DNA of 64,000 nucleotides, taken from assembly GCA_964618815.1 (NCBI GenBank), contig CAZUBT010000006.1, forward strand, positions 739-64,738, given 5' to 3'. The translations under genes and the position numbers were made by a program. The notes beneath the pieces are model-generated. The model was given only the letters and a program-made list of their open reading frames with translations. It was not told the DNA's origin and made no database searches. Shown here one piece after another: positions 1,344-61,133 of the stretch; within the stretch, counting starts at the first letter, position 1; every line of letters starts with the position of its first letter. The DNA is from an uncultured Desulfobacterales bacterium. Its GTDB lineage: Bacteria > Desulfobacterota > Desulfobaccia > Desulfobaccales > 0-14-0-80-60-11.

Positions 1344-1444
1344 ATACCAAGTTCTGTTTCCAATGCAACCAACTTAAGTTTCAATTTGCTGATAAGCCAG
1401 GTCTTTCTAACCGAAAACCGATAACCGAAAACCGAAAACGGTAT
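1344..1444 (+). repeat. about 100-bp composite element (ATACCAAGTTCTGTTTCCAATGCAACC...CCGAAAA array...GGTAT)
   Basis: Near-identical copy at 10642-10727; diverged copy at 55748-55844; ends ATACC/GGTAT are inverted. Confidence 0.8.
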
Positions 1445-1453
1445 TAGAAATAT

Positions 1454-1477
1454 GGCGGGCGCGGCCCGCCCTATAAT
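1454..1477. repeat. REP-like hairpin, family E (GGCGGnCnCGGGCCGCCCTATAAT)
   Basis: Copies at 11936-11957 (inverted), 17496-17519 and 43289-43312. Confidence 0.75.
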
Positions 1478-1527
1478 TTTCTGATGGCAAAATGCTAACC
1501 CGGCAACCCGCTCTTTCCCCCCTTCCC

Positions 1528-2067
1528 TCAACTCCCTTTCAGAGTCAGCGGCAGCCCCGCAACCACCAACACCACCAGGTCCGCAAGCTGCGCCAGGCAT
1601 TGATGGAGCCGGCCGGCCCGGTCCCGAAAAGCCCGGCCCAGGGCATTTTCCGGGACTATGCCCCATCCCACTTCATTGCTGATAAAAATCGCCGGGGTGG
1701 AGGTATTTTTCAGAACCTCCAGAAGTTGCAGGCATTCCGCTTCGATGCCGCTTCCCTGGTCTTCTCTGAGCATCAGGTTGCTCACCCACAGGGTCAGGCA
1801 GTCCACTACAATCACCCCATAGCGGCCCTGGGACGCGGTAAGGGCGTCCTTCAGGTTAAGAGGCTCTTCCAGAGTCTCCCATTCCGGCCCCCGCTCCAGG
1901 CGGTGCCGGGCGATGCGGGCCGCCATTTCCGCGTCCCGGGCTTCCCCGGTGGCCACCAACAGCCGGGGCGCGGGAAAGCCCTGGGCCAGGGACAGCCCGT
2001 AGCGGCTTTTGCCGCTCTTGGCCCCTCCCAGAATCAGAGCCAGGCGAAAGGGATCGGTCATCATCAA
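1528..2067 (-). CDS. cobU: adenosylcobinamide kinase / adenosylcobinamide-phosphate guanylyltransferase
   Basis: 179 aa; P-loop GGAKSGKS near N-terminus; overall CobU/CobP-like sequence (VATGEA.D.EM..RI..H). Confidence 0.8.
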   Translation of the reverse strand: MMMTDPFRLALILGGAKSGKSRYGLSLAQGFPAPRLLVATGEARDAEMAARIARHRLERGPEWETLEEPLNLKDALTASQGRYGVIVVDCLTLWVSNLMLREDQGSGIEAECLQLLEVLKNTSTPAIFISNEVGWGIVPENALGRAFRDRAGRLHQCLAQLADLVVLVVAGLPLTLKGS

Positions 2068-2124
2068 CGGTACCTGAAATCAGTTATCTGAGCCAAATGC
2101 TCCCCTCCCCCACAGACTCCTGCC

Positions 2125-2721
2125 TCACGGGCGGATAAGGCGGCCGGCCTGCATCTGGGACTCCAGGATGGTGAACATGTTGGACACCGTCCCCACCCCC
2201 AGGCGGTCCCGCACCTTATAGAAATCCAGGCAGGCGCCGCATACCAGGAGCTTCACCCCCATTTCTTCCAGGCCCTTGAGTTCCGGCAGCGCCGGAGAAT
2301 CATTCAGGGCCAGGAAAACCCCCCGGTTGTAGAAGAGCAATTTCTGGGGGGCTTCCATCTGCACCAGGGATTGGAGAAAGGCCCCCATGAGAATGTCTCC
2401 CAGGGCCGGATCGCCGTCCCCCATGCGGTCCGAAGCGAAGACCACTACGGTGGTTAGGGGTGCGGGCGCGGCCGCGGGAAAGACGCAGGTCTGGGCGGCA
2501 TCGCCGGCGGGGAGCCGGATGGTCAATTGGTAGCGCGCTCCCGCGGGCGTCATGGTCACCCGGCAGCCCCGGCTTTCCGCGAACCGGGTGATGTTATCCC
2601 GGGACAGGTCGCTGTCCACCACGACAATCAATTCCTCCAGGCCCTTGGCTTCCAGGGCCTCCTTGGTGCGGATCACCGGCAGAGGGCAGGCCAGGCCGGA
2701 AAGGTCCAGGATTTGCGGCAT
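2125..2721 (-). CDS. yedF: YedF-type selenium-metabolism protein (TusA/SirA-like N-domain with CPLP motif fused to DsrE-like C-domain)
   Basis: N-terminus LDLSGLACPLPVIRTKEAL is the TusA CPxP signature; about 200 aa two-domain layout typical of YedF. Confidence 0.7.
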   Translation of the reverse strand: MPQILDLSGLACPLPVIRTKEALEAKGLEELIVVVDSDLSRDNITRFAESRGCRVTMTPAGARYQLTIRLPAGDAAQTCVFPAAAPAPLTTVVVFASDRMGDGDPALGDILMGAFLQSLVQMEAPQKLLFYNRGVFLALNDSPALPELKGLEEMGVKLLVCGACLDFYKVRDRLGVGTVSNMFTILESQMQAGRLIRP

Positions 2722-2890
2722 GTTTCATGCTCCTTGACCATCAGCGGCCACACCGCGACAAACCAGGCGGTTCAGCAAGGGTAACAGAAAGTTTAGCGCC
2801 GCCCTGGGCGGCGAATAATCTAGTGTGAATCTTCTTAAATAAGATGGCTTTTCTCTTGAGGGAAAAGCCCCAATAAAAGCCTGTATTTTA

Positions 2891-2971
2891 CCCCCCTTTT
2901 CTAAAGGGGGGCAGGGGGGATTATATAAGCGTTTGATAATCCCCCTAAATCCCCCTTTAGGAAAGGGGGAC
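2891..2971 (-). repeat. triple-hairpin G5/C5 element (about 85 bp)
   Basis: Three consecutive hairpins built on CCCCC/GGGGG arms; reverse-complement copy at 19827-19918. Confidence 0.75.
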
Positions 2972-3157
2972 TTTAAAGCAGTTTTTTATAGGACCAGGCA
3001 AATTAATTGCCTTACAATTTATGAAGCATGACACTAGAACCCTTGATTTATGGGGACGGCAAGCCGCGCCCCTGCAATGGATGAAAAACTTTCGGAGTTT
3101 CCGGTTGGACCGCGGTTAGCCGCCGCTAACCCGCTAAACCGCTGCCCCCGGGCCGCC

Positions 3158-5993: not shown

Positions 5994-6044
5994 AGGTTCA
6001 AGGTTCAAGGTTCAAAGTTCAAGGTTCGAGGTTTTAGGTTTAAG
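5994..6044. repeat. heptanucleotide tandem array (AGGTTCA/AAGTTCA)
   Basis: Seven consecutive 7-nt units read directly. Confidence 0.9.
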
Positions 6045-10291: not shown

Positions 10292-10450
10292 TGAAGGTAT
10301 AAGGGGCCTGGGGGAAAAAGACCTAAGTTTCGCACCCTTTTTACGCCTAAAAACCAGGGGGGCAATGCAGGTGAGGGGCAACCCGGGAAAAATATTCGGT
10401 GGCACAGGCTTTCCAGCCTGTGCGGTCATCTATCCATTAAATTGCGCCTT

Positions 10451-10563
10451 ATACCAATTCGCCATCAAAGGTTTATTTTTCGTAGTTCGCCTGCCTTTTT
10501 AGGGCGAACACAAGGTTCGCCCCTACGATAGCGTTTTGTAATTCTTTGATTGCACCTCGGTAT
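10451..10563 (+). repeat. MITE-like ATACC...GGTAT element containing a family D REP (GGGCGAACACAAGGTTCGCCCCTAC)
   Basis: Reverse-complement copy at 11772-11897; related copies at 43311-43430 and half copy at 32601-32660. Confidence 0.75.
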
Positions 10564-10726
10564 TAAAACACCGCCGAGGGCGGCGGTGCTACACGAACAG
10601 TCGGGAGCTGCCGGTCCCTGCCCCCTCCCCCAAACCCCCTCATACCAAGTTCTGTTTCCAATGCAACAAACTTAAGTTTCAATTTGCTGATAATCCTGGT
10701 CTTTTTAACCGAAACCGAAAACGGTA

Positions 10727-11755
10727 TCAAAAGCTATCCAGGTCGATCTCCCAGGCATATTTGATGGCGTGATTGGCGAAGGTTACTTGCCGGAACCCCG
10801 CGGTTTTTAATTTCTTCAACAGATCGCTCTTATCCAGAAATAAAAACACCAGGGGACGGTTGAACAACACGCAATCCATTTTGAGGGCGGATTTATCCGG
10901 GCCGCTCAATTCCATCTTGACATCAAAGCCCTTGCTTAAAAAATCCCGGTCCAGGTAGGCCGCCAACTCCTCCCGGCCTTTGACGGCCCGCTCTGACGCG
11001 GCCTTTTGCATGGCTTCGTTAAATTTCTTCAGGTCCTTTTCCCGCCGGGCCACTTCTTGGAGCAGCTCCTGGGCTTCCTGGTATGCCTCCGCCTTCTTGG
11101 GGACGGCCTCCAGGTGCTTCCGGGCCTCGTCCAGTCTGCCGTAAGTCCGCTGCTTGAGGTCCTCATGATCCGGATTCCCTTCGGCCAGGGCCTGCTTGGC
11201 CTTGTCTAAATGGAGAAAGGGCAGGAGGCTGTTGAAATCCCGGTCTTTGGCGGCTTGTTTGGCCAGTTCCTGCAAGAGGTAATCCCTGGGGAAAATCGCC
11301 ACCAGCTTATATTCCGGCTTGGGGAAGATTTGCCAGGTAACGGGATCCAGCTTGAAAGACCTCTCCACGGTTAAAGCCTGCACCTTGCCGCCCCGCCAGT
11401 AAAGCTTCACCAGGTCGGGAACGTTTCGGCTCCCCTTTTTCTTCCCCAATTTGAGATAATCCACCTGCTCCGAGACCCAGACCTCGTCAAATTTCACTTC
11501 CAGGCTATCCCGGCTCCTGGACCGCAATTCATCAACCCCATAGAATATATTCGCCGCCTCCCGGTAAGCCTTCCAGACCTCCAGGGACTCCCGGCCCGGC
11601 TCCTTGATTTTCTTAGCCTTGTGAAAATCCCCGAATACCGCGGAGTTAAGGAGCGCCTGCTTTTCCCCCGGTTTTCCCTTGCCGGCCCCGGTCAGGGTGA
11701 CTAGAGAAATCAGGATAAGGACCAGGAACCAGAATTGGGTTAAAATTCTGTGCAT
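10727..11755 (-). CDS. secreted protein of unknown function
   Basis: 342-aa ORF with N-terminal signal-like helix (FWFLVLILISLVTLTGA); Lys/Glu-rich; no family recognised; flanked by inverted repeat elements. Confidence 0.6.
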   Translation of the reverse strand: MHRILTQFWFLVLILISLVTLTGAGKGKPGEKQALLNSAVFGDFHKAKKIKEPGRESLEVWKAYREAANIFYGVDELRSRSRDSLEVKFDEVWVSEQVDYLKLGKKKGSRNVPDLVKLYWRGGKVQALTVERSFKLDPVTWQIFPKPEYKLVAIFPRDYLLQELAKQAAKDRDFNSLLPFLHLDKAKQALAEGNPDHEDLKQRTYGRLDEARKHLEAVPKKAEAYQEAQELLQEVARREKDLKKFNEAMQKAASERAVKGREELAAYLDRDFLSKGFDVKMELSGPDKSALKMDCVLFNRPLVFLFLDKSDLLKKLKTAGFRQVTFANHAIKYAWEIDLDSF

Positions 11756-11771: not shown

Positions 11772-11897
11772 ATACCGAGTTGCAATCAAGGAATTACGAA
11801 ACACTATCGTAGGGGCGAACCTTGTGTTCGCCCACCATTCAGGGCGAACACAAGGTTCGCCCCTACAAAAAATATACGTTTGACTGCGAATTGGTAT
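11772..11897 (-). repeat. MITE-like ATACC...GGTAT element with family D REPIN doublet
   Basis: GTAGGGGCGAACCTTGTGTTCGCCC ... GGGCGAACACAAGGTTCGCCCCTAC inverted pair; matches 10451-10563 in inverted orientation. Confidence 0.75.
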
Positions 11898-17430: not shown

Positions 17431-17689
17431 ATGGGGTTCCTTTTGTTAAAATAGTTTATTGGGGGAAGGCGTGCCGTGCATGTCGCATATTGTTCGGCGG
17501 CCACGGGCCGCCCTATAATTTCTGCTCACTGGTCTGAAAAGTTTTCGGTTTTCGGTTAAGAAACCGGCAAGGAGTTGGGCTCCCCGGTCCCAAGCTCCAT
17601 TTGGGAAGACATGTAGGGTGCGTTCTACGCACCATCCAACAGAATCCTTTCACGATTTAAGGGTGTTCCAAAAGTGCATGAATAACTGC

Positions 17690-18265
17690 TTACTGGTCAC
17701 TATCCTCACCCAAAGGGATGACCTTTAACGGCGTGTACACCGACCCCTGGGGGGAGAGCACGCTGCGAAACAGGATGATCTCTCCCACCTGGAAGGGCGG
17801 CCAGTCGGGAGACGGCAGGTATTTGAGCATCTTGGCAAGCCGCTCCCGCCCCCGGGGGGATTTGACCCGCCCCAGGGTGAGGTGGGGATGAAACGTCCGG
17901 CCCTCCAGGGGATAACCCTGTGGGGCGAAGGCCTGCTCCAGCCCCCGGTATAATTGCCCCAAGGGGGCCAGGTCCCCTGCCAACCCCAGCCACACCACCC
18001 GTGGGTTGTTGATGCTGGGAAAGGCTCCGAGGGCGGTGACCCGTAACTTAAATGGGGCCGCGTCCGCGGCGACCTCCAGGGCCGCCTGGGCCAGGGCGTC
18101 CACCTCCGCGTCCGGCACGTTGCCGAAAAATTTCAAGGTCAGGTGGATGTTCCCCGGGGGAACCCAGCGCACCTCGGCGCCGCTTTTTTTCAGTTCCTGG
18201 ATTAGCAATGCCAATCCCGGACGCCAGGCCGCAGGCAAATCAATGGCTAGAAAAGCGCGAATCAT
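17690..18265 (-). CDS. thpR: RNA 2',3'-cyclic phosphodiesterase (2H family, LigT/ThpR)
   Basis: Two HxTx motifs (HLTLKF, HLTLGR) at the expected spacing. Confidence 0.85.
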   Translation of the reverse strand: MIRAFLAIDLPAAWRPGLALLIQELKKSGAEVRWVPPGNIHLTLKFFGNVPDAEVDALAQAALEVAADAAPFKLRVTALGAFPSINNPRVVWLGLAGDLAPLGQLYRGLEQAFAPQGYPLEGRTFHPHLTLGRVKSPRGRERLAKMLKYLPSPDWPPFQVGEIILFRSVLSPQGSVYTPLKVIPLGEDSDQ

Positions 18266-18274
18266 TTTTTTCTT

Positions 18275-18309: not shown

Positions 18310-18338
18310 TATGTGTTTTTGACAAATCAACCACTGGT

Positions 18339-26935: not shown

Positions 26936-26936
26936 A

Positions 26937-43470: not shown

Positions 43471-44628
43471 TTAAAATGTAACCCCCGCCTCTTCCGACGG
43501 CAGGCTTTCATTGGCTCGGCGGGAGTCATCCACCGCGGTGACGGAATAGTAATACGTTCTCCCCTTAACCACGTTGGTATCCACAAAATATGGCCGGGTG
43601 ACCAATTGGGGCGTCAGACGGGCCGCCGCGGCCTCTCCCGCGCCCCGGCGATAGACCCGGTAGCCCGCCAGGTCCGCGGCCGGGCTGGGGTCCCAGCGCG
43701 CTTCCAACCCCTGGGAGGTGGGCACCACCACCAGGTTCAACAAGGGCGGCGGCGGGGTGCGGTCTTCGGGCATGGCTATTTGCAGAGGCGAATTCTGGCT
43801 TTCTATCAGGTCTTCCCCCAGCTGGCGCACGGCCCGCACCGTGTAAGTGTATTCCACATCATTCAAGACCGCCACATCCTGAAAGTCGGTTTGGACCACC
43901 GGCTTGGGCGTCACCCTGAGCCAACCGCTGCTCCCGGAGCGGCGATAAATCAGGTAGCCGGCCAGGTCCCGGAGAGGGCTGCCGTCCTGGAACTGGGACA
44001 CGGGGGCCCAAGCCAGCCGCACCTGCTTGTCTCCCGGAGCCGCTTTGAGGTCCCGAGGCCCCCGGGGCAGCAGGCCCCAGGCGTGGTTCAACACCGGGGA
44101 CCAGGTCCCCGGGTACCGGTCGGTATCATAACCTGCCGCGCGGTAGTAATAACGGCGGTCCGGCTTCAGGTCCCGGTCCTGGTATAATACCGACTCCCCC
44201 CGCACCTGGCCCACTTTGGCATAAGCCAGGTCAATATCCGCCACGGTGAGGAACTGCGTTGAAGCCGCGGGCGCAGGCCGGACCCCTTTAACTTCCGCCC
44301 GTTCCAGACGAAACCCCTGGAGGCGAGTCAGCGGCCGCCCCAGCAGGTCCTCCTTGGGGAAGAGCCAGCTCAACACCAGGCTGTCGCCCTCCTGGGACAG
44401 GCGGAACTCCCGCACCGGCCCTGGCAATACCTCTTCAGGGGACAGCGGCGACATCTTCTTCCCGCAAGCCCCGGTTAGAAGGGCAAGGAGGAGGAGCAGG
44501 AGCGTAAGAATTTGGGGGAGGGCCGGGGGCCGACAAGTCCCCCGCCCTCCCTCACACCCCCTCCCCACCCCCTGTAAGGGGTTGGGAATGGGGGTATGGC
44601 GGCAGTGGCCGGACGCCCCTGCTTCCAT
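43471..44628 (-). CDS. lipoprotein with three fibronectin-type-III-like repeats
   Basis: Lipobox LLTGAC; three modules ending in L(A/T)GY.(I/V)YRR; start uncertain (ATG at 44628 gives a long pre-lipobox leader; the ORF-track N-terminus runs through a REP element). Confidence 0.55.
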   Translation of the reverse strand: MEAGASGHCRHTPIPNPLQGVGRGCEGGRGTCRPPALPQILTLLLLLLALLTGACGKKMSPLSPEEVLPGPVREFRLSQEGDSLVLSWLFPKEDLLGRPLTRLQGFRLERAEVKGVRPAPAASTQFLTVADIDLAYAKVGQVRGESVLYQDRDLKPDRRYYYRAAGYDTDRYPGTWSPVLNHAWGLLPRGPRDLKAAPGDKQVRLAWAPVSQFQDGSPLRDLAGYLIYRRSGSSGWLRVTPKPVVQTDFQDVAVLNDVEYTYTVRAVRQLGEDLIESQNSPLQIAMPEDRTPPPPLLNLVVVPTSQGLEARWDPSPAADLAGYRVYRRGAGEAAAARLTPQLVTRPYFVDTNVVKGRTYYYSVTAVDDSRRANESLPSEEAGVTF

Positions 44629-44732
44629 ACTCGAAAAATCCCTGTTTATCCGTTTTGCCACGATTGTCCTTATGGGGTGGCACAGGCTTTCCAGCCTGTG
44701 CATTAGACGCTGGTGAGATTGCCCCTTCCGCA

Positions 44733-46115
44733 TCAACCCAATCCCAACTCCTTTTCCACCCGGGCCAAGGCCTCTTCCACCCGCTCCGGCGCGGTGCCGC
44801 CGGGGGAGAGGCGCCTTCCCACGGAGGACTCGATGGTGAGCCAGTCAAAGATGTCTCCCGCCGCGGCGGGCGCGAATCGCTGAATTTCATCCAGGCTGAG
44901 CTCCCACAACTCCTTCCCCTGGGCTTCGGCGTAACCCACCGTGCGCCCCACCTGCTCGTGCGCGGTGCGGAAGGGGACGCCTTGGGTCACCAGGTAATCG
45001 GCCAGGTCCGTGGCGGTGAGGAAGCCGCCGTGCAACGCCCGGGCCATGCCTTCCGGGCGGATGGTCAACGCGGCCAGCAACCCGGCCATCAATTCCACGG
45101 ACGCGGTCACCGTATCCACCGTGTCAAACAGGGGTTCCTTATCCTCCTGGAGGTCCCGGTTATAGGTGAGGGGCAGGCCCTTCAGGATCATCAGCAGGCT
45201 CATGAGATTCCCGGTAACCCGGCCGCATTTGCCCCGGATGAGCTCCGGCACATCGGGGTTTTTCTTCTGGGGCATGATGGAGGAGCCGGTGGCGTAAGCG
45301 TCCGGCAGGGTCACAAAGCCGAACTCCGGGCCGGACCAGAGGATGAGTTCTTCCGACAGGCGGCTTAAATGCACCATGATGATGGCGGCCTGGGACAGAA
45401 ATTCCACCAGGAAATCCCGGTCGCTCACCGCGTCCAGACTGTTGCGGAAGACCTCCGGAAAGCCCACTTGCTCCGCGACATACTGCGGGTCGATGGGAAA
45501 GGTGGTGCCCGCTAAGGCCGCGGCCCCCAGTGGGGAGACCCGGATGCGGGCCAGGGATTCATGCAGCCGCGCCTGGTCCCGGACCCACATTTCATCGTAG
45601 GCCAGCAGATGGTGAGAAAAAAGCACCGGCTGGGCCCGTTGCAAGTGGGTATAACCAGGCATCTTAACCCCAAAATGGGCCCGGGCCAGCCGCGCCCCGG
45701 CCCGGCGCAGGTCCGTGAGCCGGTCAATCAGGGTCTCCACCGCGTCGGCCAGGTAAAGGCGCACGTCCAGGGCCACCTGGTCGTTCCGGCTCCTGGCGGT
45801 GTGGAGCTTGCGGCCCTCGTCGCCGATTTTGGCGATAAGCCGGGCCTCGATGGCCATGTGGATGTCTTCCAGGGCGGGGTCGAAGACGAACTCCCCGGAT
45901 TCGATCTCCTGCTGGATTTCTGCCAGCCCCTGAACGATCTGCCCCGCGTCGTCCGGGGTGATGATGCCCTGGCGGGCCAGCATCCGGGCATGGGCCATGG
46001 ACCCGGCGATATCCTGGCGATAGAGGCGCCGGTCGAAGTGCAAAGAACAGGTGAAGCGCTCCACCTGCTTTTCCGTGTCGCCGATAAAGCGTCCGCCCCA
46101 GGGTTTTTTGGGCAT
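44733..46115 (-). CDS. argH: argininosuccinate lyase
   Basis: 460 aa; GSSIMPQKKNPD signature. Confidence 0.95.
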   Translation of the reverse strand: MPKKPWGGRFIGDTEKQVERFTCSLHFDRRLYRQDIAGSMAHARMLARQGIITPDDAGQIVQGLAEIQQEIESGEFVFDPALEDIHMAIEARLIAKIGDEGRKLHTARSRNDQVALDVRLYLADAVETLIDRLTDLRRAGARLARAHFGVKMPGYTHLQRAQPVLFSHHLLAYDEMWVRDQARLHESLARIRVSPLGAAALAGTTFPIDPQYVAEQVGFPEVFRNSLDAVSDRDFLVEFLSQAAIIMVHLSRLSEELILWSGPEFGFVTLPDAYATGSSIMPQKKNPDVPELIRGKCGRVTGNLMSLLMILKGLPLTYNRDLQEDKEPLFDTVDTVTASVELMAGLLAALTIRPEGMARALHGGFLTATDLADYLVTQGVPFRTAHEQVGRTVGYAEAQGKELWELSLDEIQRFAPAAAGDIFDWLTIESSVGRRLSPGGTAPERVEEALARVEKELGLG

Positions 46116-46274: not shown

Positions 46275-46709
46275 CTATTGCCGCGTAAAAGGAAAGCCGC
46301 AGGCTTCGCACCGGGCTTCCTTAAGAGACTCCGCGTCCGCCAGCTTCTGCAACTGCCCGCACTGCCGGCAGCGGGTCACCGGCCGGTAATCGATCCAGCC
46401 CACATCCTTCCAGTACTTCAGGGTGCCGTATTTTCGCCGGTAAAGATAAATGGGATACAGCAATCCCAGAATAATCAGGTGCGCCAGGCCGATGAAGAAA
46501 AACTTCCAGGAAACCAGAATCCCCAGTCCCATGCCCAGGAGAAAGGTGGCCGACAGGCGCCAGGATTTGTCCCAAATTCTCCGGTCCGCAAAGGTCCAGG
46601 GGACCCGCACCCCGATCCACCAGTTGGGGCCGGGCCGCCAGAAGAACATCAGCAGTCCCGAGCCGCCGAAGAGCGCCGCCAGAAGGTATTTGAGTTCGCC
46701 GGGTATCAA
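46275..46709 (-). CDS. SdpI/YhfL-like membrane protein with C-terminal CxxC...CxxC zinc ribbon
   Basis: NWWIGVRVPWTFADRRIW resembles the SdpI-family motif; 3-4 TM segments; tail CRQCG...CEACG. Confidence 0.55.
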   Translation of the reverse strand: MIPGELKYLLAALFGGSGLLMFFWRPGPNWWIGVRVPWTFADRRIWDKSWRLSATFLLGMGLGILVSWKFFFIGLAHLIILGLLYPIYLYRRKYGTLKYWKDVGWIDYRPVTRCRQCGQLQKLADAESLKEARCEACGFPFTRQ

Positions 46710-46722
46710 TGGGGCCAGTCTT

Positions 46723-46866
46723 CGGTTTTCAGTTTTCGGTTTTTGGCGGTTTCATGCCGACGATCATTTCTTTACGGACGCAAAGACAGAGCAAAATGTC
46801 TCACGTCAAGATGCCAAGACGCCAAGACCGCTAAGAACAATGGTGAACCGCCGCCCCGGGCGGCGG
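46723..46866 (+). repeat. about 140-bp direct repeat, copy 1 (CGGTTTT array, TTTCATGCC..ATCATTTCTTTACGGACGCAAAGACAGAGCAAAATGTC, GC hairpin)
   Basis: Second copy at 47040-47174, high identity over the first 90 nt or so. Confidence 0.85.
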
Positions 46867-47039
46867 TTCGTCGGGTGTGACGGTGAGCTTGCCCCATCCC
46901 ACATCTAATTACCTCCTCCCGACCCCCTTTCTTGGGCCCGCCGGGGGAGGGGGGGAGGTAGTGTGGGCCGGTTTAGCCCAGGTTTACCGGCGCCGGCCAG
47001 TTTACCGACGCCGTGCTCGCCTGCCAAGATGTTAGAAAC

Positions 47040-47174
47040 CGGTTTTCAGTTTTCGGTTTTCGGCGGTTTCATGCCAATGATCATTTCTTTACGGACGCAA
47101 AGACAGAGCAAAATGTCCCACTCCAAGACGCCGAGACCGTCAAGGAAAAATGTGAAATGCCGCCCCGGGCGCGC
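47040..47174 (+). repeat. about 140-bp direct repeat, copy 2
   Basis: See 46723-46866. Confidence 0.85.
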
Positions 47175-47195
47175 TTGAGCCGGCGTCAACGGGCT

Positions 47196-49180: not shown

Positions 49181-49316
49181 AGCCTATACCTGTGATGATT
49201 TATTGTTTTGCTGAGGAATTTTTACTCCGATTATTGGTGCGTAAGACGCACCCTACATTTTTCACAGGCGGGACGCCTGTGCCACCAGGGATTATTTGCT
49301 TCCTGGCCCCTGGCCC

Positions 49317-50225
49317 CTATCCCAATAGCCACTCCAGCAGGGCCTTCTGAAAGTGCAGTCTATTCTCCGCCTGGTCCCAGGCCGCGGATTGGGGGCCGTC
49401 CAGGACTTCCGAGGTGATCTCCTCTTCCCGGTGGGCCGGGAGGCAGTGGAGCACGACGGCCTCGGGACGGGCCAGTTTAAGCAAGTCGTTATTCACCTGA
49501 TACGGTTTGAAGATTTCCTTGCGGGCCGCGGCTTCGGCTTCCTGGCCCATGGGGGCCCAGACGTCGGTGTTGATGACGTGGACGTCCCGGACCGCCCATC
49601 GCGGGTCCTGGCCCAGGTAAATGGGGCGGCCCTCTGCCTGGGCTTCCCGGAGCAGGGCCGCATCCGGCTCATACCCTTGAGGGCAGGCCAGGTACAGGCT
49701 GAAATCCAGGTGCAGGGCCGCGGTGATCCAGGAGTTGGCCATGTTGTTGCCGTCCCCCACCCAGGCCACCTTGAGGCCGGAGACCGCGCCGAAGCGTTCC
49801 TGAATGGTCATGAGGTCGCTTAACACCTGGCAGGGGTGGTGGGTGTCCGTGAGGCCGTTGATCACCGGAATCGCGGCGTGGCGGGCCAGGTCCTCCACGA
49901 GTTTCTGGGCGAAGGTGCGGATGACCACCGCGTCCACGTACCGGGACAGCACCCGGGCGGTGTCGCCGATGGGTTCCCCCCGGTCCAGTTGGGTCTGGCC
50001 CGGAGCCAGGTAGATGCTGGCCCCCCCCAATTGGGCCATGCCCGCCTCAAAGGAGACCCGGGTGCGGGTGGAGGGCTTGTCGAAGATCATGGCCAGGGTT
50101 TTGCCCACCAGGGGCCGGGGGTTCTCCCCCCGGCGGCGCAGGTCCTTGAGCTGCCGGGCCCGGGCCAGGAGAGTCTTGATTTCCTCCGGGGTGAGATCCA
50201 GGATGGTCAAGAGATCGCGTTTCAT
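49317..50225 (-). CDS. argF: ornithine carbamoyltransferase
   Basis: STRTR, HPCQ, HCLP motifs; start set to MKRDLL (50225) because upstream codons lie in a heptamer array. Confidence 0.95.
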   Translation of the reverse strand: MKRDLLTILDLTPEEIKTLLARARQLKDLRRRGENPRPLVGKTLAMIFDKPSTRTRVSFEAGMAQLGGASIYLAPGQTQLDRGEPIGDTARVLSRYVDAVVIRTFAQKLVEDLARHAAIPVINGLTDTHHPCQVLSDLMTIQERFGAVSGLKVAWVGDGNNMANSWITAALHLDFSLYLACPQGYEPDAALLREAQAEGRPIYLGQDPRWAVRDVHVINTDVWAPMGQEAEAAARKEIFKPYQVNNDLLKLARPEAVVLHCLPAHREEEITSEVLDGPQSAAWDQAENRLHFQKALLEWLLG

Positions 50226-50234: not shown

Positions 50235-50378
50235 AAGTTCAAAGTTCAAAGTTCAAGGTTCAAAGTTCAAGGTTTAAGATTTTAGATTTTAGCCTATTCC
50301 AGTAAGCAAGTGTTGGCGGGCGCGGAGGCCCGCCCCACCGATTTTTAACAGAAAACAGAAAACCGAAAACAGAAAACT
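50235..50378. repeat. argD-argF spacer: AAGTTCA/AGGTTCA array, family C REP, CAGAAAA/CCGAAAA array
   Basis: 50235-50291, 50315-50338 and 50347-50378 read directly. Confidence 0.9.
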
Positions 50379-51592: not shown

Positions 51593-51672
51593 CAGTTCAA
51601 GGTTCAAGGTTCAAAGTTCAAAGTTGAAAACTAACAACCCCAAACCCCAAACCTTGAACTTTGAACCTTGAA

Positions 51673-51674
<2 letters not shown>
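51593..51674. repeat. argB-argD spacer: inverted GGTTCAA arrays
   Basis: CAGTTCAAGGTTCAAGGTTCAAAGTTCAAAGTTGA ... ACCTTGAACTTTGAACCTTGAACT. Confidence 0.9.
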
Positions 51675-52788
<1,114 letters not shown>

Positions 52789-55459: not shown

Positions 55460-55538
55460 GTGGGGCGGGCCTCCGTGCCCGCCTAAAGTAACGCTCATCG
55501 GCGAGGCTGGTTTAGGCGGGCGCGGAGGCCCGCCCCAC
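55460..55538. repeat. REPIN-like doublet, family C
   Basis: GTGGGGCGGGCCTCCGTGCCCGCC ... GGCGGGCGCGGAGGCCCGCCCCAC, 31-nt spacer. Confidence 0.85.
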
Positions 55539-55553
55539 CGATGTAATATCAAG

Positions 55554-55750
55554 TTGAGACCTCTGCGAAAAGGGCTTGAGCGATGACAAATCAGCTTCAA
55601 AGGAAAAGAAACTAGTGGCACAGGCTTCCAGCCTGTGGGTAACTCTTTGGTAAAACAAGGTTTTTTGCACAGGCTGGAAGCCTGTGCCACCAGATTTTCC
55701 CCCAGGATTTAGTTCCCCTGTGTACCGGCTGATTTTCGCAGAGGTCTCAA
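55554..55750 (+). mobile_element. 197-bp MITE-like element, copy 1 (18-bp perfect TIR TTGAGACCTCTGCGAAAA)
   Basis: Terminal inverted repeats read directly; an internal inverted pair of family A hairpins; no coding capacity. Confidence 0.8.
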
Positions 55751-55855
55751 GTTCTGTTTTAGATGCAACCAACTCTATGGCTAACTTATTGATAATCCAA
55801 TTTCTTTTAACCGAAAACTGAGAACCGAAAACCGAAAACGGTATCAGACGCTGCG

Positions 55856-56953: not shown

Positions 56954-57086
56954 GTGGGGCGGGCCTCCGTGCCCGCCGGGTAAAGATCAACCGCGGATGC
57001 ACGCAGATTAACGCAGATTAAATTGCACTCAGCCGCGTTCGTCTGCGGTGGATCTCCATGGAGGCGGGCACGGAGGCTCGCCCCAC
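56954..57086. repeat. wide inverted pair of family C hairpins enclosing a GCAGATT-type array
   Basis: GTGGGGCGGGCCTCCGTGCCCGCC at 56954-56977, complement at 57063-57086. Confidence 0.8.
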
Positions 57087-57178
57087 GATCAAAAAGTCCG
57101 AGCTCGTTGGCGCAGGCTAAAGCCTGCGGCTACAGATAATATCTGCGCTTTTGGCTGAAAGCTGATGGCTGACAGCTC

Positions 57179-57460
57179 TTAATTGGTAAACACCCGGACT
57201 TTTGCGGGGGAATCCAGGTAACCGTCGATCTCGGCGCTCATTTTTTGCCGTTCCGGGTTGTTCAGCCAGGCCTGCCAATGGTCCAACGACTCCCAGGTGC
57301 TGATGACCAGGTAATAGTTGGGATCGTCCACGGCGTGCAGGGTCTCCCCGGAGATGTAGCCCGGCTGCCGCATGGCCTGGACCCTAAGCTGCCTGAGCAG
57401 GCGGACGATCTCGCCCACCTGCTTGCCTTTGATGGAGCGCTCCAGCAATACCTTGACCAT
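57179..57460 (-). CDS. antibiotic-biosynthesis-monooxygenase (ABM/Dabb) domain protein
   Basis: 93 aa; GYISGETL......YYLVISTWES..HWQAW pattern typical of ABM domains. Confidence 0.7.
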   Translation of the reverse strand: MVKVLLERSIKGKQVGEIVRLLRQLRVQAMRQPGYISGETLHAVDDPNYYLVISTWESLDHWQAWLNNPERQKMSAEIDGYLDSPAKVRVFTN

Positions 57461-57547
57461 GGCCCCCTCCTTTCTGATTAGCGGTTTAGCGGGTTAGCAG
57501 TAAGCCGTTAGCTTTCAGCTTTTAGCCGTCGGCCTTTAATACCAGAA

Positions 57548-57743
57548 TGAGACCTCTGCGAAAATGGTTTGAGCGATGACAAATCAGCTTCAAAGGAAAA
57601 GAACCTAGTGGCACAGGCTTCCAGCCTGTGAATAACTCTATGGTAAATCAAGGTTTATTGCACAGGCTGGAAGCCTTTGCCACCAGATTTTTCCTCTGGA
57701 TTTTGTTTCCCTGTGTACCGGCTGATTTTCGCAGAGGTCTCAA
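57548..57743 (+). mobile_element. 196-bp MITE-like element, copy 2 (17-bp TIR)
   Basis: Roughly 90% identical by eye to 55554-55750, same orientation. Confidence 0.8.
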
Positions 57744-58146
57744 AATGCCTTCAAAATGAGATTATCAGTAGCAGCAGGTTTTTATAAGGAAATGGCGGCA
57801 CAGGCATTTTGCCGGCGCATCCCTCAGCATCGACCGCGGGATTAGAAACCGGACAGCCGGGGGCGGCTGTCCTACATTTCCAGGCTTCGTGGTGATCCCC
57901 AAGGGGTTATGGGACGTTAGCCTGCGCCGGGGAAAGGCGAGATGCTAATGGCGCCTTTTGATTGCAATTCAGTATAATTTCCAGCTCTTGGCTTTATATT
58001 GGCGGCTGCCGATGGAATAACTAAACCACTGAACCACCACACCTCTGATCATAATATAGCCAAATTGGGAGGGAAGTCCAGCCCTGAGGCCGAAAACATC
58101 CTCTTGAGGGGCCGGTTTCTCTATGGTAATATAAAAATTTGGATAG

Positions 58147-59322
58147 ATGGGGAGACGGATGGTCAAACTGACGGAACTGCGGGATGCTCTGGACAGGCAG
58201 GAGGAGATCAAGCTCTCCCCTTATGCCGCCCGCAGCACCCAGGCGGTGCGGCGGCGTTACGAGGAGCGCATCGCCCAGGGCCATCGCCAGAACTTCGCGG
58301 TGGACGCGGACCGCATCCTCCACTCCCGGGCCTACACCCGGTACATCGACAAGACCCAGGTCTTTTACCTCATCGATCACGAGCATATCAGCCACCGGGT
58401 GCTGCACGTGCAGCTCCTTTCCAAGATCGGCCGGACCATCGGCAAGTATCTGCGGCTGAATGAGGACCTCATCGAGGCCATCGCCCTGGGCCACGACATC
58501 GGGCATCCCCCCTTCGGGCATGACGGGGAGCGGATTCTCTCCACCATCTGCCAGGCCCACGGCATCGGGGCGTTTTTGCACAACCTCCAGGGGGTGCAGT
58601 TCCTGGATCGGGTGGAGAAAAACGGCCGGGGCCTCAATCTGTCCCTGCAGGTACTGGACGGCATCTTGAGCCATGATGGGGAACCCCACCTGGAGCGCCT
58701 CTCTCCGGAGGCGGAAAAGAACTTCGCGCGTTTGGAAGAGGAACTCCGCCTCAAGTCCGCGGACCCGGATTACCCTCTGAAGCCCATGACCCTGGAAGGC
58801 TGCGTGGTGCGCCTGGCGGACACCATCAGTTACATCGGCCGGGACCTGGAAGACGCCATCACCCTCAATCTGGTGCGCCGGGAGGAGCTGCCCGAAGGGC
58901 CGGCCCAGCTCCTGGGGCGCACCAACGGCGCCATTGTCTATTCTTTGGTGGCGGACCTCATCCGCCACAGTTTCGATAAGAACTATGTGGGTTACAGTCC
59001 CGAGGTGGGCCGGGCCTTGAAGGAGTTTAAGGCATTTAATTACCAGCGCATTTATAACAATCCCCGCATCAAAGGAGAGACTCCCAAGATTGAGGTCCTG
59101 TTTGCCGGCATGTTTGCGCGGTTTCTGGAGGACGTGCAGCAAAAGCGGCTGGACTCCCCCATCTGGACCGATTTCCTGGCCCAACTGGACCATGAATATG
59201 GGGCGAATCACCAACCTGCGGAGATGGTGCGGGACTTTCTGGCCGCCATGACCGACGCCCAATTTTTGCGCCAGTCCCAGGAAATGTTCTTTCCCCGGCC
59301 CCTGCCGGCCAGGTTTGCATGA
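58147..59322 (+). CDS. dGTPase-like HD-domain triphosphohydrolase
   Basis: F..D.DRILHS.AYTR...KTQVF...H..HRV.H and LGHDIGHPPFGH motifs of the Dgt family. Confidence 0.85.
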   Translation: MGRRMVKLTELRDALDRQEEIKLSPYAARSTQAVRRRYEERIAQGHRQNFAVDADRILHSRAYTRYIDKTQVFYLIDHEHISHRVLHVQLLSKIGRTIGKYLRLNEDLIEAIALGHDIGHPPFGHDGERILSTICQAHGIGAFLHNLQGVQFLDRVEKNGRGLNLSLQVLDGILSHDGEPHLERLSPEAEKNFARLEEELRLKSADPDYPLKPMTLEGCVVRLADTISYIGRDLEDAITLNLVRREELPEGPAQLLGRTNGAIVYSLVADLIRHSFDKNYVGYSPEVGRALKEFKAFNYQRIYNNPRIKGETPKIEVLFAGMFARFLEDVQQKRLDSPIWTDFLAQLDHEYGANHQPAEMVRDFLAAMTDAQFLRQSQEMFFPRPLPARFA

Positions 59323-59331
59323 GGTCCGGAG

Positions 59332-60090
59332 ATGCTGCGCGTGATGACCTTCAACCTCCGGTTTGCCAACCCCGAGGATGGCCCCAATGAATGGCGGCAC
59401 CGCAAGGAAATGGTGGTGGAGTTGATTCTGCGGCGCTCCCCGGATTTACTGGGCACCCAGGAAGGCACCGTGCCGCAGTTGGATTACCTCACCGGGCAGC
59501 TTGAGGGCTATCTCCCCTTAACCGGCCACCGCCGGGTGGATCCCACCTGCCAGTACCCCACCATTTTTTATCGGGCCGGGGGGTTCACCGTGATGGACAG
59601 CGGGGAATTCTGGCTCTCGGAAACCCCCGAGGTGCACCGGAGCATGAGCTGGTGCAGCGCTTTCCCCCGCATGGCCACCTACGGCATCTTGCGCTCGCCG
59701 GAACAGGAATTTTATTTCATCAACACCCATCTGGACCACATCTCCTCAGAGGCCCGGCTCCAGGGAGCCCGGATGATCCGGAACCATTTTCTTCCCTTAA
59801 AGACCCCCATAATCCTGGCGGGGGATTTCAACGAACCGCCGGATGGCCCGGTTTTCCAGGAATTCATGGGAGGCGACAGCCCCTTACAAGATACCTGGCG
59901 GGCCCTGCATCCCCCGGGGGAGGAGCCCGCCACCCAGCACCACTTCGATGGCCGGCCCCGGGGCGCCAGGATTGACTGGATTCTCACCACCGCCCCCTTC
60001 CGGGTGCGGGACGCGATGGTGGTTACCGATAATGTCAACGGTCGCTATCCTTCCGATCACTTTCCCTATATGGCAGAGGTGGATTACTGA
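59332..60090 (+). CDS. endonuclease/exonuclease/phosphatase (EEP) family protein
   Basis: MTFNLRF N-terminus, GTQE, final SDHFP motif. Confidence 0.8.
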   Translation: MLRVMTFNLRFANPEDGPNEWRHRKEMVVELILRRSPDLLGTQEGTVPQLDYLTGQLEGYLPLTGHRRVDPTCQYPTIFYRAGGFTVMDSGEFWLSETPEVHRSMSWCSAFPRMATYGILRSPEQEFYFINTHLDHISSEARLQGARMIRNHFLPLKTPIILAGDFNEPPDGPVFQEFMGGDSPLQDTWRALHPPGEEPATQHHFDGRPRGARIDWILTTAPFRVRDAMVVTDNVNGRYPSDHFPYMAEVDY

Positions 60091-61073
60091 TGGCCCGGAT
60101 AATATGGCTGCTGCTGGCGCTCCTCTTTTTGAGCACGCCGGTTCACGGAAAACAGGCGGAATCTTTACCCCTTTACGTCCTGATGGCAGGGGGCGAAGAA
60201 GCTTATGAAGTCCCCCCCAAAACGACCATCAACCGGGTGGCCCAGGAAAAGGGGGTGCAGTGGACGGTGGTGGCCCGAGAGAATGAGCTCAAAAAGCCTT
60301 TTAAGATTCAGTCCGGCATGATTCTGAAGCTAAACAACACTCATATTGTGCCCACGGATTTGAGTAACGGTTTTGTCATCAATCTGCCGGAGTTGCTCCT
60401 GTATTACTTCAAGGACGGCGTTTACCAGCGGCGCTATGCCCTGGCGGTGGGCAAGCCCAGTTGGCCCACTCCCACCGGGAATTATCAGCTTTGCAACAAG
60501 AGCAAGAACCCCACCTGGACCGTGCCCGTGTCCATCCAGGAGGAAATGTTTAATGCCGGCTATGAGGTGGTGGAAAAGGTGCCGCCGGGGCCCAAAAATC
60601 CCCTGGGGCAGTACTGGATGGGCACCACCGCGTCCGGGGTGGGCATCCACGCCACCAACCGCCCCTGGTCCGTGGGCCATTTCGTATCCCACGGCTGCAT
60701 CCGGATGCTGCCGGACGAGATCGCCCAGCTCTTCCCCCTGGTGGAGGTGGGGTTGCCGGTGAAGATCACCTATCGTCCCGTCAAAGTGGCGGTTACCCCA
60801 CAGGGGCGCATCTTTCTGGAGGCCCACCCCAATATTTATCGGAAAAAGCTGAACTACCTGGAATTGGTGAAGGAATTGGCCCAACAGCACCAGATCGTCA
60901 GCCGTCTGGATTGGGATAAGGTCGCAGCCGTTTTGAAGGCCAGGGAAGGCATCGCCCGGGACGTCACCAAGGTCCAGCTTCCCCCCGACCCGGCCACCAA
61001 AGAGGTGGAATTCCAGAAACCCCGGGAAATGGGGCTTTTTCCTTTACAGGGCCAGGGGGTCAAGTTAGAATAG
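60090..61073 (+). CDS. L,D-transpeptidase (YkuD domain), secreted, possibly with a degenerate LysM-like N-domain
   Basis: Signal peptide; catalytic SHGCIRM motif preceded by GIHATN. Confidence 0.85.
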   Translation: MARIIWLLLALLFLSTPVHGKQAESLPLYVLMAGGEEAYEVPPKTTINRVAQEKGVQWTVVARENELKKPFKIQSGMILKLNNTHIVPTDLSNGFVINLPELLLYYFKDGVYQRRYALAVGKPSWPTPTGNYQLCNKSKNPTWTVPVSIQEEMFNAGYEVVEKVPPGPKNPLGQYWMGTTASGVGIHATNRPWSVGHFVSHGCIRMLPDEIAQLFPLVEVGLPVKITYRPVKVAVTPQGRIFLEAHPNIYRKKLNYLELVKELAQQHQIVSRLDWDKVAAVLKAREGIARDVTKVQLPPDPATKEVEFQKPREMGLFPLQGQGVKLE

Positions 61074-61133
61074 ATAACTTGTCGGTCTGAAGCCGGTTTT
61101 CGGTTTTTGGTAACAAACCATAAACCAGAAGAT

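Follow-up and report, generated by a model that had tools for sequence, protein, structure and literature searches.

Heptanucleotide Tandem Arrays at Gene Ends in a Desulfobaccales Genome

The Window and Its Arrays

The 64,000-nucleotide stretch of contig CAZUBT010000006.1 that we analyzed, hereafter the window, carries chromosomal housekeeping genes (alaS, leuS, tyrS, pcnB, cinA, xerC, hslU, argB-argD-argF-argG-argH, and lysA, with the gene order xerC-hslVU-argBDFGH-lysA), and in the spacers between its genes units of 7 nucleotides (nt) are repeated head to tail in short arrays, which are the subject of this report. The guanine plus cytosine (GC) content of the window is about 0.59, and that of codon position 3 about 0.8. 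The closest named relatives of its ArgB protein, at 80-85% identity, belong to metagenome-assembled genomes (MAGs) labeled "Desulfobaccales bacterium," which makes the sulfate-reducer-like host proposed in a preliminary description of this DNA a reasonable one; the public runs that contain the stretch are metagenomes of rock, sediment, and groundwater. A 65.8-kb metagenomic contig matches the ArgB of the window at 100%, and an exact-protein look-up with the ArgG of the window returned nothing. For the gene map, 16 genes of confident identity served to train a model of codon usage, and Pfam and NCBIfam scans covered 20 of the approximately 65 predicted open reading frames (ORFs). Scans of the window for tRNAs and Rfam families returned no match, and neither the arrays nor the composite elements described below belong to a curated RNA family at gathering thresholds.

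The excess of 7-nt periodicity is real and specific to that unit length. An autocorrelation scan (match +1, mismatch -2, score of at least 10) finds 29 period-7 arrays that cover 901 bases, against 0.2 in local shuffles in which the sequence was randomized inside 100-nt blocks; the other periods from 3 to 13 yield 0-4 arrays each, and the 23 period-14 arrays are the same loci as those of period 7. Tandem Repeats Finder (TRF) gives about 40 period-7 rows among 80. The preliminary description had counted about 30 heptamer loci by eye, and its coordinates hold to within a few bases for the arrays at 1409, 5994, 17541, 18275, 18460, 22187, 22412, 26798, 26903, 30893, 31981, 32800, 34729, 39806, 41694, 43449, 46721, 47042, 50235, 50347, 51595, 52570, 55809, and 61094 (Table 1). 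At three of its further sites, 10705, 32721, and 57150, arrays are present but short or degenerate, and the GCAGATT loci that it listed at 54260 and 56990 are not heptamer arrays (TRF reports a period of 10, with 2.1 copies, at 57001-57021). A looser cutoff (score of at least 8) raises the count to 34 arrays, the set compared with the gene map; copy numbers lie between 2.1 and 8.3. As head-to-tail 7-nt repeats that exceed chance in both length and frequency, the arrays have the character of long simple sequence repeats (LSSRs). They are not CRISPRs, which consist of 24-48-nt repeats with unique spacers of similar length between them; the units here are 7 nt long and contiguous.

Although 83% of the window is coding and only 17% noncoding, 31 of the 34 arrays are fully intergenic, a strong noncoding bias of the kind that marks LSSRs. 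The arrays are distributed along the whole 64-kb contig, occupy 8.5% of its intergenic bases, and flank arg genes, lysA, hslU, aminoacyl-tRNA synthetase genes, and xerC; they are also present at other Desulfobaccales loci. The claim that they fill nearly every intergenic spacer was too broad: among spacers of at least 40 nt, 19 of 44 (43%) bear an array, and these divide, in numbers that are small for the last two types, into tandem (16 of 36), convergent (3 of 4), and divergent spacers (0 of 4), the last in keeping with the scarcity of LSSRs between divergent ORFs. Phase-variation (contingency) loci, at which simple sequence repeats within a promoter or 5′ coding region of a surface, virulence, or restriction gene switch its expression by their copy number, were considered and ruled out on account of the housekeeping neighbors, the lack of an array in any divergent promoter spacer, and the intergenic position of 31 of the 34 arrays.

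Read on the G-rich strand, about 14 of the 34 arrays have the unit AGGTTCA/AAGTTCA (the GTTCAAR type), about ten have CGGTTTT, CAGTTTT, or CTGTTTT, about five have AGCTGAC or AGCTATC, and three have CAGTTGA or CAGTTAA, with TAGTTGT, GAGTTTC, AGATTCA, AGCAGTG, and AGGGGCC as one-off units. Units shift gradually along some arrays, from AGGTTCA to AGGTTTT at 5994, from AAGTTCA to AGATTTT at 50235, and from GTTCAAR to GTTTGGG at 51636. A shared core had been proposed for the units, and in the window about 30 of 34 do have GTT on the G-rich strand, but this is no general rule: relatives use AGTGACC, GCAGTGA, and CTGTCAG, and in other phyla ACGAGGG, AAACGTG, and others are found. The RGYT core at the same phase that had been proposed does not apply generally.

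The arrays keep a regular relation to the genes beside them. Ten begin 0-20 nt past a stop codon, several overlapping it (the junction is TAG-TTCAAGG at both argB and gene 39927-40802), and about eight finish 6-16 nt 5′ of a start codon, leaving room for a ribosome-binding site only. The earlier description had the arrays stop at or within a few nucleotides of stop and start codons and never interrupt reading frames; many lie at the distances just given, and 31 of 34 are fully intergenic. Of 30 arrays, 25 have a G-rich strand that points 5′ to 3′ away from the adjoining gene (binomial p = 3e-4), so that, as for LSSRs, the ORF lies on the 5′ side of that strand; in the sense of the mRNA, the sequence is (RGUUNNN)n in arrays that follow a stop and the complement in those that precede a start. 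Unit perfection is slightly higher at the gene-proximal end (0.955-0.972 versus 0.893-0.932) in all three data sets, and an asymmetry of the flanking heptads is found in the window only; the evidence for a polar decay of units toward the gene-distal end is weak.

Inverted Pairs and Orthologous Spacers

About one-third of the arrays are arranged in inverted pairs, and the transcripts of these spacers fold into stems of approximately 30 bp that link the two ends of the spacer. The predicted folds are stable relative to shuffled sequence for the argB-argD spacer (-42.1 kcal/mol, z -6.1), for spacers 39790-39935 (-52.9 kcal/mol, z -6.4) and 26790-26938 (-56.6 kcal/mol, z -6.8), and for the 225-nt spacer 18266-18490 (-90.6 kcal/mol, z -7.2), in which the AGCT-type arrays 18275-18306 and 18460-18489 form a closing stem around two hairpins that resemble repetitive extragenic palindromic (REP) elements. 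Unpaired arrays fold no better than shuffles, and about half of all arrays are both unpaired and unstructured. No array hairpin appears in the list of terminator-like sites (GC-rich stem plus U-run), of which the window has 34 against 24.8 +/- 5.8 in shuffles, near expectation; a terminator role is unsupported.

Period-7 arrays lie near argB in all eight contigs from relatives (ArgB 83-98% identical to that of the window; ENA, NCBI, and JGI assemblies), with almost none of any other period. We compared the hslU-argB and argB-argD spacers across seven relatives. In the window and in relatives L125 and L003, the argB-argD spacer reads TAG-(TTCAAGG)n-loop-(AACYTTG)n-TGACACGGAGGAA-start, the 5′ arm counting 3+2 units in the window against 6+1 in L125, a difference in copy number. 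In L001 and L124, the 5′ arm at the identical place is (AGTTGAC)n, and the 3′ arm in L001 is the complementary (GTCAACT)n, the L124 contig stopping before that arm; the ArgB of L124 is 98% identical to that of the window, yet the unit differs (AGTTGAC versus GTTCAAR). In L004, the arms are (AGTGACC)n and (GGTCACT)n; L126 has (AGTGGTC)n, and L002 has GC-rich palindromes in place of arrays. The hslU-argB spacer holds (GCAGTGA)n and (TCACTGC)n in L125, the 3′ arm being common to L001 and L124, units of the GTTCAAR type in L126 and the window, and CTGTCAG/AGCTGAA in L004. Occupation of the same spacer in relatives by repeats of varying length and sequence is a further trait of LSSRs.

To judge from these spacers, position and inverted layout persist, and unit and copy number turn over rapidly, both arms changing together. 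That a unit is swapped at a kept position, and in both arms jointly, speaks against a sequence-specific binding site and favors either selection for pairing or a form of copying that depends on pairing. In L124, L125, L001, L004, and L002, an array reaches to 0-8 nt from the argB start, with no recognizable Shine-Dalgarno sequence (e.g., ...CTGCTCACTATTCACCCATG); a missing Shine-Dalgarno sequence was likewise noted by MacGregor for repeat-preceded genes of Beggiatoa (PMC4679880).

Other Phyla, Viral Contigs, and Other Repeats

A pattern of four GTTCAAR units, run against bacterial and archaeal contigs representing one genome per species, matches at least 118 loci. The matches listed come from Acidobacteriota (many of them Pyrinomonadaceae), Verrucomicrobiota, Bacteroidota, Planctomycetota, Nitrospirota, Patescibacteria, Burkholderiales, Chlorobiaceae, and several Thermodesulfobacteriota, including at least five Desulfobaccales MAGs, and some are from isolates. 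In 835 kb of these listed loci there are 343 period-7 arrays, about half of them with other units (ACGAGGG, AAACGTG, and others in other phyla), against 4-35 arrays for each of the other periods from 4 to 12; a search of these other units for a common motif found none dominant after reverse-oriented GTTCAAA had been discounted. The positional rule also holds among the listed matches, where the 5′ end of the G-rich strand lies beside a long-ORF boundary 151 times (91 stops and 60 starts) and the 3′ end 54 times, and where 49 of 170 GTTCAAR arrays start between -2 and +11 nt from a long-ORF stop, most often as TA-GTTCAAR. When the listed matches, the window, and the relatives are taken together, adjacent related arrays are inverted in 61 cases and direct in 14, and 55 of the 61 inverted pairs open with an arm that has more G than C (38 of 41 GTTCAAR pairs and 17 of 20 with other units). 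This G-arm-first rule is strand symmetric and cannot, therefore, reflect the direction of transcription as such. The preliminary description had seen a hint of something more than independent slippage, and the polarity in the window, the excess of inverted over direct pairs, and the G-arm-first bias all strengthen it.

In IMG/VR viral contigs, the same four-unit pattern finds 83 GTTCAAR stretches and 11 for each of two permutations of the same composition; GTTRACA gives 7 and GTTTTCR gives 39. Measured against these two control permutations only, GTTCAAR looks like a favored unit. In several IMG/VR contigs (L132, L141, L166, L172, L178, and others), three GTTCAAR arrays recur with the same spacings, 1,252 and 2,284 nt, a pattern that suggests a single widespread lineage, phage or prophage, in which the arrays have fixed places between genes. 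GTTCAA also resembles the tRNA T-loop sequence GTTCRA, a connection between the two being conjectural. In the source metagenome, the summed word depth of array bins is 300-3,000, compared with 12-20 for neighboring genes (20-200 times as high); array words are highly multicopy there, possibly across more than one organism. The unitigs of the source-metagenome runs X1-X4 terminate at arrays, so that only their depth was usable.

The spacers that hold the arrays also hold other repeats. Perfect GC-rich hairpins with a stem of at least 7 number 43 in the 17% of the window that is noncoding, compared with 19 in coding DNA, and their stems fall into the families GGTGCG..CGCACC, GGGCGAAC..GTTCGCCC, GGCGGGC..GCCCGCC, GCACAGGC..GCCTGTGC, and CACCGCCG..CGGCGGTG. 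They are located between the heptamer arrays of the same spacers, and many have CTAC(A) at one flank or GTAG at the opposite one, the hallmark of REP elements associated with REP-associated tyrosine transposases (RAYTs). A 207-bp element, present as two copies that are 91% identical (55544-55750 and 57537-57743) and that flank xerC and a small ABM-like gene, has terminal inverted repeats of approximately 16 bp (GAGACCTCTGCGAAAA ... TTTTCGCAGAGGTCTC) and internal hairpins of the GCACAGGC type, and it looks like a miniature inverted-repeat transposable element (MITE). Paired palindromes, CCCCCCTTTTCTAAAGGGGGG / TCCCCCTTTAGGAAAGGGGGA, recur at two distant spacers (2891-2970 and 19833-19913) as another short dispersed repeat family.

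Three composite families include arrays. The copies of D3 (1348-1448, 10646-10746, and 55748-55848), 73-78% identical, consist on the minus strand of a (CGGTTTT)n array followed by about 65 conserved bases with a sigma-70-like TTGCAT-17-TGGTATAAT motif. Of the copies, the third is found upstream of hslV-hslU, and the other two are antisense into neighboring genes. The D7/D8 family, about 120 nt long (22388-22508, 41670-41790, 52609-52700 in reverse complement, and also 22603-22663), has an (AAGTTCA)n array and then a conserved TTTCATAATTTACGGGTGRGCYAAAGRCYCATG..., matches no Rfam family at the gathering score, and may represent a small RNA or, alternatively, a MITE. D10 is a tandem duplication (46723-46880 and 47040-47175; 92% identical over 98 nt) of an element that has a (CGGTTTT)n array at its start and, at its end, CCAAGAC-type 8-nt repeats together with a GC-rich hairpin.

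Two islands of low GC content, 24140-25600 and 35500-37000, have ORFs with a GC content of about 0.4, compared with 0.6 elsewhere, and no internal heptamer arrays; the ORFs are 24350-25216(-) and 35496-36965(-), the latter a membrane protein of 489 amino acids with a PMT_2 glycosyltransferase domain, and both islands were probably acquired horizontally. A gene with an fn3 domain lies between argH and lysA in the window (43471-44736, minus strand) and in relative L003 (16179-17330), an odd companion for an amino-acid biosynthesis cluster.

Table 1. Heptanucleotide arrays and GC-rich hairpins of the window (window coordinates; n, number of units)
Coordinates	Strand	Feature	Context
1409-1439	-	(CGGTTTT)n, 4.4 copies	Convergent spacer; end of composite element D3
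5994-6041	+	(AGGTTCA)n, 6.9 copies; 3′ end decays to AGGTTTT	
10707-10722	-	(CGGTTTT)-type, short, degenerate, about 2.3 copies, 1-nt deletion	Directly 3′ of stop; second D3 copy
17541-17557	+	(GTTTTCG)n, 2.4 copies	
18275-18306	.	(AGCTATC)n, 4.6 copies	9 nt from start of gene 17690-18265(-); pairs with 18460-18489
18460-18489	.	(AAAGCTGAC/AGC) array, TRF period 14	Ends at stop of cinA-like gene 18487-19719(-)
22187-22232	+	(AGTTGTT)n, 6.6 copies	11 nt past pcnB stop; RNA unstructured, z +0.56
22412-22445	+	(AAGTTCA)n, 4.9 copies	5′ end of composite D7; second D7 copy 41670-41790
22516-22539	+	(AGTTTCG)n, 3.4 copies	
26798-26843	+	(AGTTGAC/AGTTAAC)n, 6.6 copies	Hairpin arm; partner 26903-26934
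26903-26934	-	(AGTTGAC)n, 4.6 perfect copies	2 nt past stop of gene 26937-27509(-)
30832-30851	+	(AGCAGTG)n, 2.9 copies	Overlaps stop codon of ORF 30324-30833(+)
30893-30919	-	(AACTGAC)n read on plus strand, 3.9 perfect copies	Ends 6 nt 5′ of start of gene 30926-31918(+); (CAACUGA)n in mRNA, 1 base off Beggiatoa unit TAACTGA
31981-32006	+	(CGGTTTT/CTGTTTT)n, 3.7 copies	62 nt past stop codon
32723-32775	-	Short GGTTGAAGGTTCAAGG segment, then (TTGAACC)n, 3.9 copies, at 32749-32775	Small inverted pair
32800-32826	.	(AAAGCTG)n, degenerate, 3.9 copies, 75% match	Adjoins stop of gene 32858-33106(-)
34729-34756	+	(ATCGGTT/TTCGGTT)n, 4 copies	51 nt from start codon
36874-36895	+	(TCAAGTT)n, 3.1 copies	5′ edge of low-GC ORF 35496-36965(-), coding status uncertain
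39806-39836	+	(GTTCAAR)n, 4.4 copies	16 nt from start of gene 38986-39789(-); 3′ hairpin arm in mRNA
39843-39857	-	(CTTGAAC)n, 2.1 copies	Inner hairpin with end of 39806-39836
39899-39927	-	(GTTCAAR)n, 4.1 copies	Overlaps stop codon TAG of gene 39927-40802(-)
41694-41727	+	(AAGTTCA)n, 4.9 copies	Just upstream of gene 40818-41651/41702(-); second D7 copy
43449-43470	.	(GCTGACA)n, 3.1 copies	Ends exactly at stop of fn3-domain gene 43471-44736(-)
46721-46743	+	(TTCGGTT)n, 3.3 copies	11 nt from start of gene 46275-46709(-); 5′ end of duplicated D10
47042-47063	+	(GTTTTCG)n, 3.1 copies	Second D10 copy; among the few exceptions to the polarity rule
49302-49318	-	(AGGGGCC)n, 2.4 copies, weak member	Starts at argF stop codon; similar AGGGGYC array in relative L002
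50235-50292	+	(AAGTTCA)n, gradually turning into (AGATTTT)n; 8.3 copies	At argF start
50347-50377	-	(CTGTTTT/CGGTTTT)n, 4.4 copies	5 nt past argD stop
51595-51629	+	(GTTCAAR)n, 5 copies	15 nt from argD start; 3′ arm of argB-argD mRNA hairpin
51636-51673	-	(GTTCAAR)n then (GTTTGGG)n, 5.4 copies	Overlaps argB stop TAG; 5′ arm of argB-argD hairpin
52570-52608	+	(GGTTCAA)n, 5.6 perfect copies	15 nt from argB start
52697-52718	-	(CTTTGAA)n, 3.1 copies	Inside hslU-argB spacer
52729-52751	+	(AGATTCA)n, 3.3 copies	
52753-52788	-	(AGTTCAA)n, 5.1 copies	2 nt past hslU stop
55809-55839	-	(CGGTTTT)n, 4.4 copies	16 nt past xerC stop; third D3 copy
57153-57177	.	(GGCTGAA/AGCTGAT)-type, degenerate	Adjoins stop of small gene 57179-57460(-); complementary AGCTTTCAGCTTTTAGCC stretch on far side of that gene
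61094-61111	+	(CGGTTTT)n, 2.6 copies	20 nt past stop of gene 60090-61073(+)
17617-17633, 18339-18355, 22572-22588, 31934-31950, 32524-32540, 49236-49252		GC-rich hairpins, examples	
10502-10522, 11813-11862, 32602-32622, 43345-43396		GC-rich hairpins, further examples	
1454-1470, 17496-17512, 50315-50334, 55464-55534, 56958-56977		GC-rich hairpins, further examples	
10402-10423, 20625-20646, 24186-24209		GC-rich hairpins, further examples	

Origin and Possible Role of the Arrays

Heptanucleotide arrays have been known from cyanobacteria since about 1990. The short tandemly repeated repetitive (STRR) sequences of heterocystous cyanobacteria (Calothrix/Anabaena), with units such as CCCCAGT, TTGGTCA, and CAACAGT, share with the window arrays their dispersal as tandem heptanucleotides over many intergenic loci and the occurrence of several families of units in one genome, and the comparison with them drawn in the preliminary description is apt as a class assignment. 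The window arrays belong to another lineage (Thermodesulfobacteriota, order Desulfobaccales) and have other units, and they are not STRRs in the taxonomic sense; the name itself is descriptive and taxon bound and has, to our knowledge, no known mechanism behind it. REP elements, including their combinations known as bacterial interspersed mosaic elements (BIMEs) and the REP doublets termed REPINs, are also intergenic, often within operons or after stops, and give stable transcript stem-loops and inverted doublets. They are single imperfect palindromes with a conserved GTAG, linked to RAYT transposases; the window arrays differ in being tandem heptads without GTAG, and scans of 20 of the approximately 65 window ORFs turned up no RAYT gene.

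Rehm et al. (2015, PMC4692102) described GGGAATC repeats in Xanthomonas and GGGGA(C/T)T repeats in Nostoc/Anabaena that are 89-93% intergenic and 0-50 bp from an ORF. After stops, which some of them overlap, the coding strand carries these repeats, and before starts the noncoding strand does; they are scarce between divergent ORFs, and some form inverted pairs (PMC4692102). Those repeats occupy the same spacer in two species with varying length and sequence, are transcribed, and lie beside housekeeping genes, and no function was found for them (PMC4692102). The window arrays are alike in their tandem intergenic 7-nt units, strand and position rules, scarcity in divergent spacers, and recurrence in the same spacer of relatives; they differ in having no G-runs, so that the quadruplex on which that study focused is impossible, in showing no four-copy preference, in using several unrelated units per genome, and in the frequency of inverted pairs. 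MacGregor (2015, PMC4679880) reported TAACTGA repeats in marine Beggiatoaceae, some Cyanobacteria, and Bacteroidetes, patchy across phyla, and proposed a post-transcriptional regulator; the arrays there have 2-6 copies, are mostly intergenic and forward, end a few nucleotides before starts, and lie beside essential genes, and one unit dominates in the BOGUAY genome, where heptamers related to it are rare and a single inverted repeat was seen (PMC4679880). The window contains no TAACTGA array and one near match, the array at 30893-30919, which is placed in the same way before its start codon; many units, many arrays after stops, and frequent inverted pairs set the window apart.

Two further reports bear on the class. 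Mrazek et al. (2007), as summarized in PMC4679880 and PMC4692102, found heptanucleotides to be the commonest class of long simple sequence repeat in most repeat-rich prokaryotes, among units of 5-11 nt that are typical of nonpathogens and of larger, GC-richer genomes, and proposed polymerase slippage as their source; the window arrays likewise exceed chance in length, with heptanucleotides foremost, and the survey, as summarized, is purely statistical and carries no rules of orientation, pairing, or unit turnover. In Geobacter metallireducens, Aklujkar et al. (2009, PMC2700814) annotated the families GGACCGG x4 and MTYCTGA x5 as putative global regulatory elements, which resemble the window arrays in being multicopy, with 4-5 tandem heptads, in a deltaproteobacterial-type genome, and of which MTYCTGA is drawn as paired sites on opposite strands; they differ in their units, in their fixed copy number, in the occurrence of GGACCGG inside genes, and in having been found as BLAST families instead of through a general excess of period 7 (PMC2700814). 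A Geobacter genome with these published families, suggested at first by the gene order xerC-hslVU-argBDFGH-lysA, was rejected, since the units differ and ArgB homologues place the contig in Desulfobaccales. Our literature searches found no published description of heptamer arrays in Desulfobaccales specifically; the trait is nonetheless less novel than was suggested earlier, since the class, its positional rules, and the Geobacter families were already in print (PMC4679880, PMC4692102, and PMC2700814).

What we report, then, are heptanucleotide LSSRs, STRR-like in kind, from a lineage not previously noted for them. We give roughly even chances to the reading that the arrays are slippage-expanded repeats of the LSSR/STRR class, probably retained as structure-forming RNA elements at gene ends. 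They would start as short duplications at gene ends and be enlarged and homogenized by slipped-strand mispairing during replication, with the optimum at 7 nt tied, on Mrazek's proposal as summarized by others, to the polymerase. Paired arms may be kept complementary by hairpin-templated correction or by selection for pairing, and arrays would survive only where they do no harm, away from coding frames, from ribosome-binding sites, and from the promoter spacers between divergent genes. In an operon transcript, the stem would begin at the stop codon and end just 5′ of the next ribosome-binding site, looping out the rest of the spacer, including its REP-like hairpins, and so bringing the sites of termination and re-initiation together; it may also protect the transcript or mark it for processing, as REP/BIME stem-loops do. 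We speculate that, if the G arm is transcribed first, a C-rich, G-poor single strand would never be exposed to Rho before its partner was available. On grounds of sequence comparison, a function as an RNA element is the likeliest effect: the pairs lie inverted, hold their position, and change both arms jointly, which suggests that the transcript stem is what keeps the arrays in place, or at least the paired ones.

Several points weigh against this interpretation. Slippage alone does not predict the polarity rule, the preference for GTTCAAR (83 viral stretches versus 11 and 11), or the recurrence of that unit across many phyla, and a role as a hairpin cannot account for all arrays when about half are unpaired and unstructured. 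The gene map is home-made from codon usage, which leaves start codons approximate. In sediment metatranscriptome assemblies, array bins reach depths above 10,000, compared with 10-100 for genes, which fits transcription of the arrays, but this signal comes from community-level assembled contigs with no assignment to organism or strand and with possible carry-over of DNA.

In one alternative, the heptad arrays would not be passive products of slippage. A single conserved process, shared by many phyla and their phages, would build G-arm-first inverted heptad hairpins at stop codons with a preference for units like GTTCAAR, either by an unrecognized templated or hairpin-primed synthesis or through a widespread structure-specific protein that selects for them, and the hairpins would be a general device for joining spacer ends in operon mRNAs. 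In our judgment this is unlikely.

A second alternative, to which we assign a similarly low probability, is that the arrays are operator-like sites at which one protein, or a small number of them, binds RNA or DNA in a sequence-specific manner, and that they make up a global network, perhaps a post-transcriptional one. Similar to this are the heptad operators to which ribbon-helix-helix proteins such as Omega bind. A network of binding sites is also what was proposed for the TAACTGA repeats of Beggiatoaceae (PMC4679880). The model draws strength from the dominance of few units in one genome, with the GTTCAAR type in about 14 of 34 arrays; from the (CAACUGA)n array whose end lies 6 nt short of the start codon of gene 30926-31918, much as the forward TAACTGA repeats of BOGUAY do; from the arrays that replace a recognizable Shine-Dalgarno sequence in some relatives; and from the success of GTTCAAR over permutations of the same composition and its recurrence in many phyla. 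It must contend, however, with at least six unrelated units within 64 kb, with flanking housekeeping genes that are unrelated to one another, with the emptiness of all four divergent promoter spacers, and with orthologous spacers that swap the unit and keep position and inverted layout even at 98% ArgB identity. When a unit is replaced at a kept position, whatever is selected is not a particular sequence.

Nor do we think it probable, at about the same level of doubt, that the arrays or their inverted pairs are small nonautonomous mobile elements of the MITE/REPIN type, served by an enzyme encoded elsewhere, a proposal that would explain how the same unit comes to lie at different loci, in phages, and across phyla. 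The presence of one unit at many loci, the word depth of arrays in the source metagenome, the stretches in viral contigs and the many phyla, the arrays that terminate the longer repeated elements D3, D7, and D10, and the company of REP-like hairpins with GTAG/CTAC flanks and of the 207-bp element with its terminal inverted repeats are all in line with mobility. Yet the loops and flanks of the pairs are not conserved across loci or relatives, copy number changes unit by unit, and units merge gradually into related ones (5994, 50235, and 51636), as local slippage and mutation would yield. No target-site duplications were noticed, although no systematic search for them was made, and no transposase or RAYT gene appeared in the Pfam and NCBIfam scans of 20 of the approximately 65 window ORFs.

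It is very improbable that the arrays act as non-B DNA, as G-quadruplexes (G4s) or i-motifs, for although their positional rules equal those of G4-forming repeats (Rehm et al. 2015, PMC4692102), GTTCAAR, AGTTGAC, CGGTTTT, and AGCTGAC have no G-runs and can form no quadruplex, the weak AGGGGCC array at 49302 being the sole possible former. Least credible of all is that they are assembly artefacts or neutral junk without consistent properties; short-read assemblies do break at arrays, but the same arrays stand in the same spacers of independent ENA, NCBI, and JGI assemblies, and they avoid coding sequence and are biased in both polarity and inverted pairing.

Desulfobaccales joins the lineages that carry heptamer repeats, and the published positional rule holds here for units that are unable to form G-quadruplexes, so that an explanation by G4 structures is not general. 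That an inverted pair is kept while both of its arms swap unit points to structure, or to copying that depends on pairing, and not to a sequence-specific site. On the practical side, the arrays break short-read assemblies and are candidate strain markers. The recurrence of GTTCAAR as G-arm-first pairs in many phyla and in viral contigs raises a question that is testable in cultured organisms.

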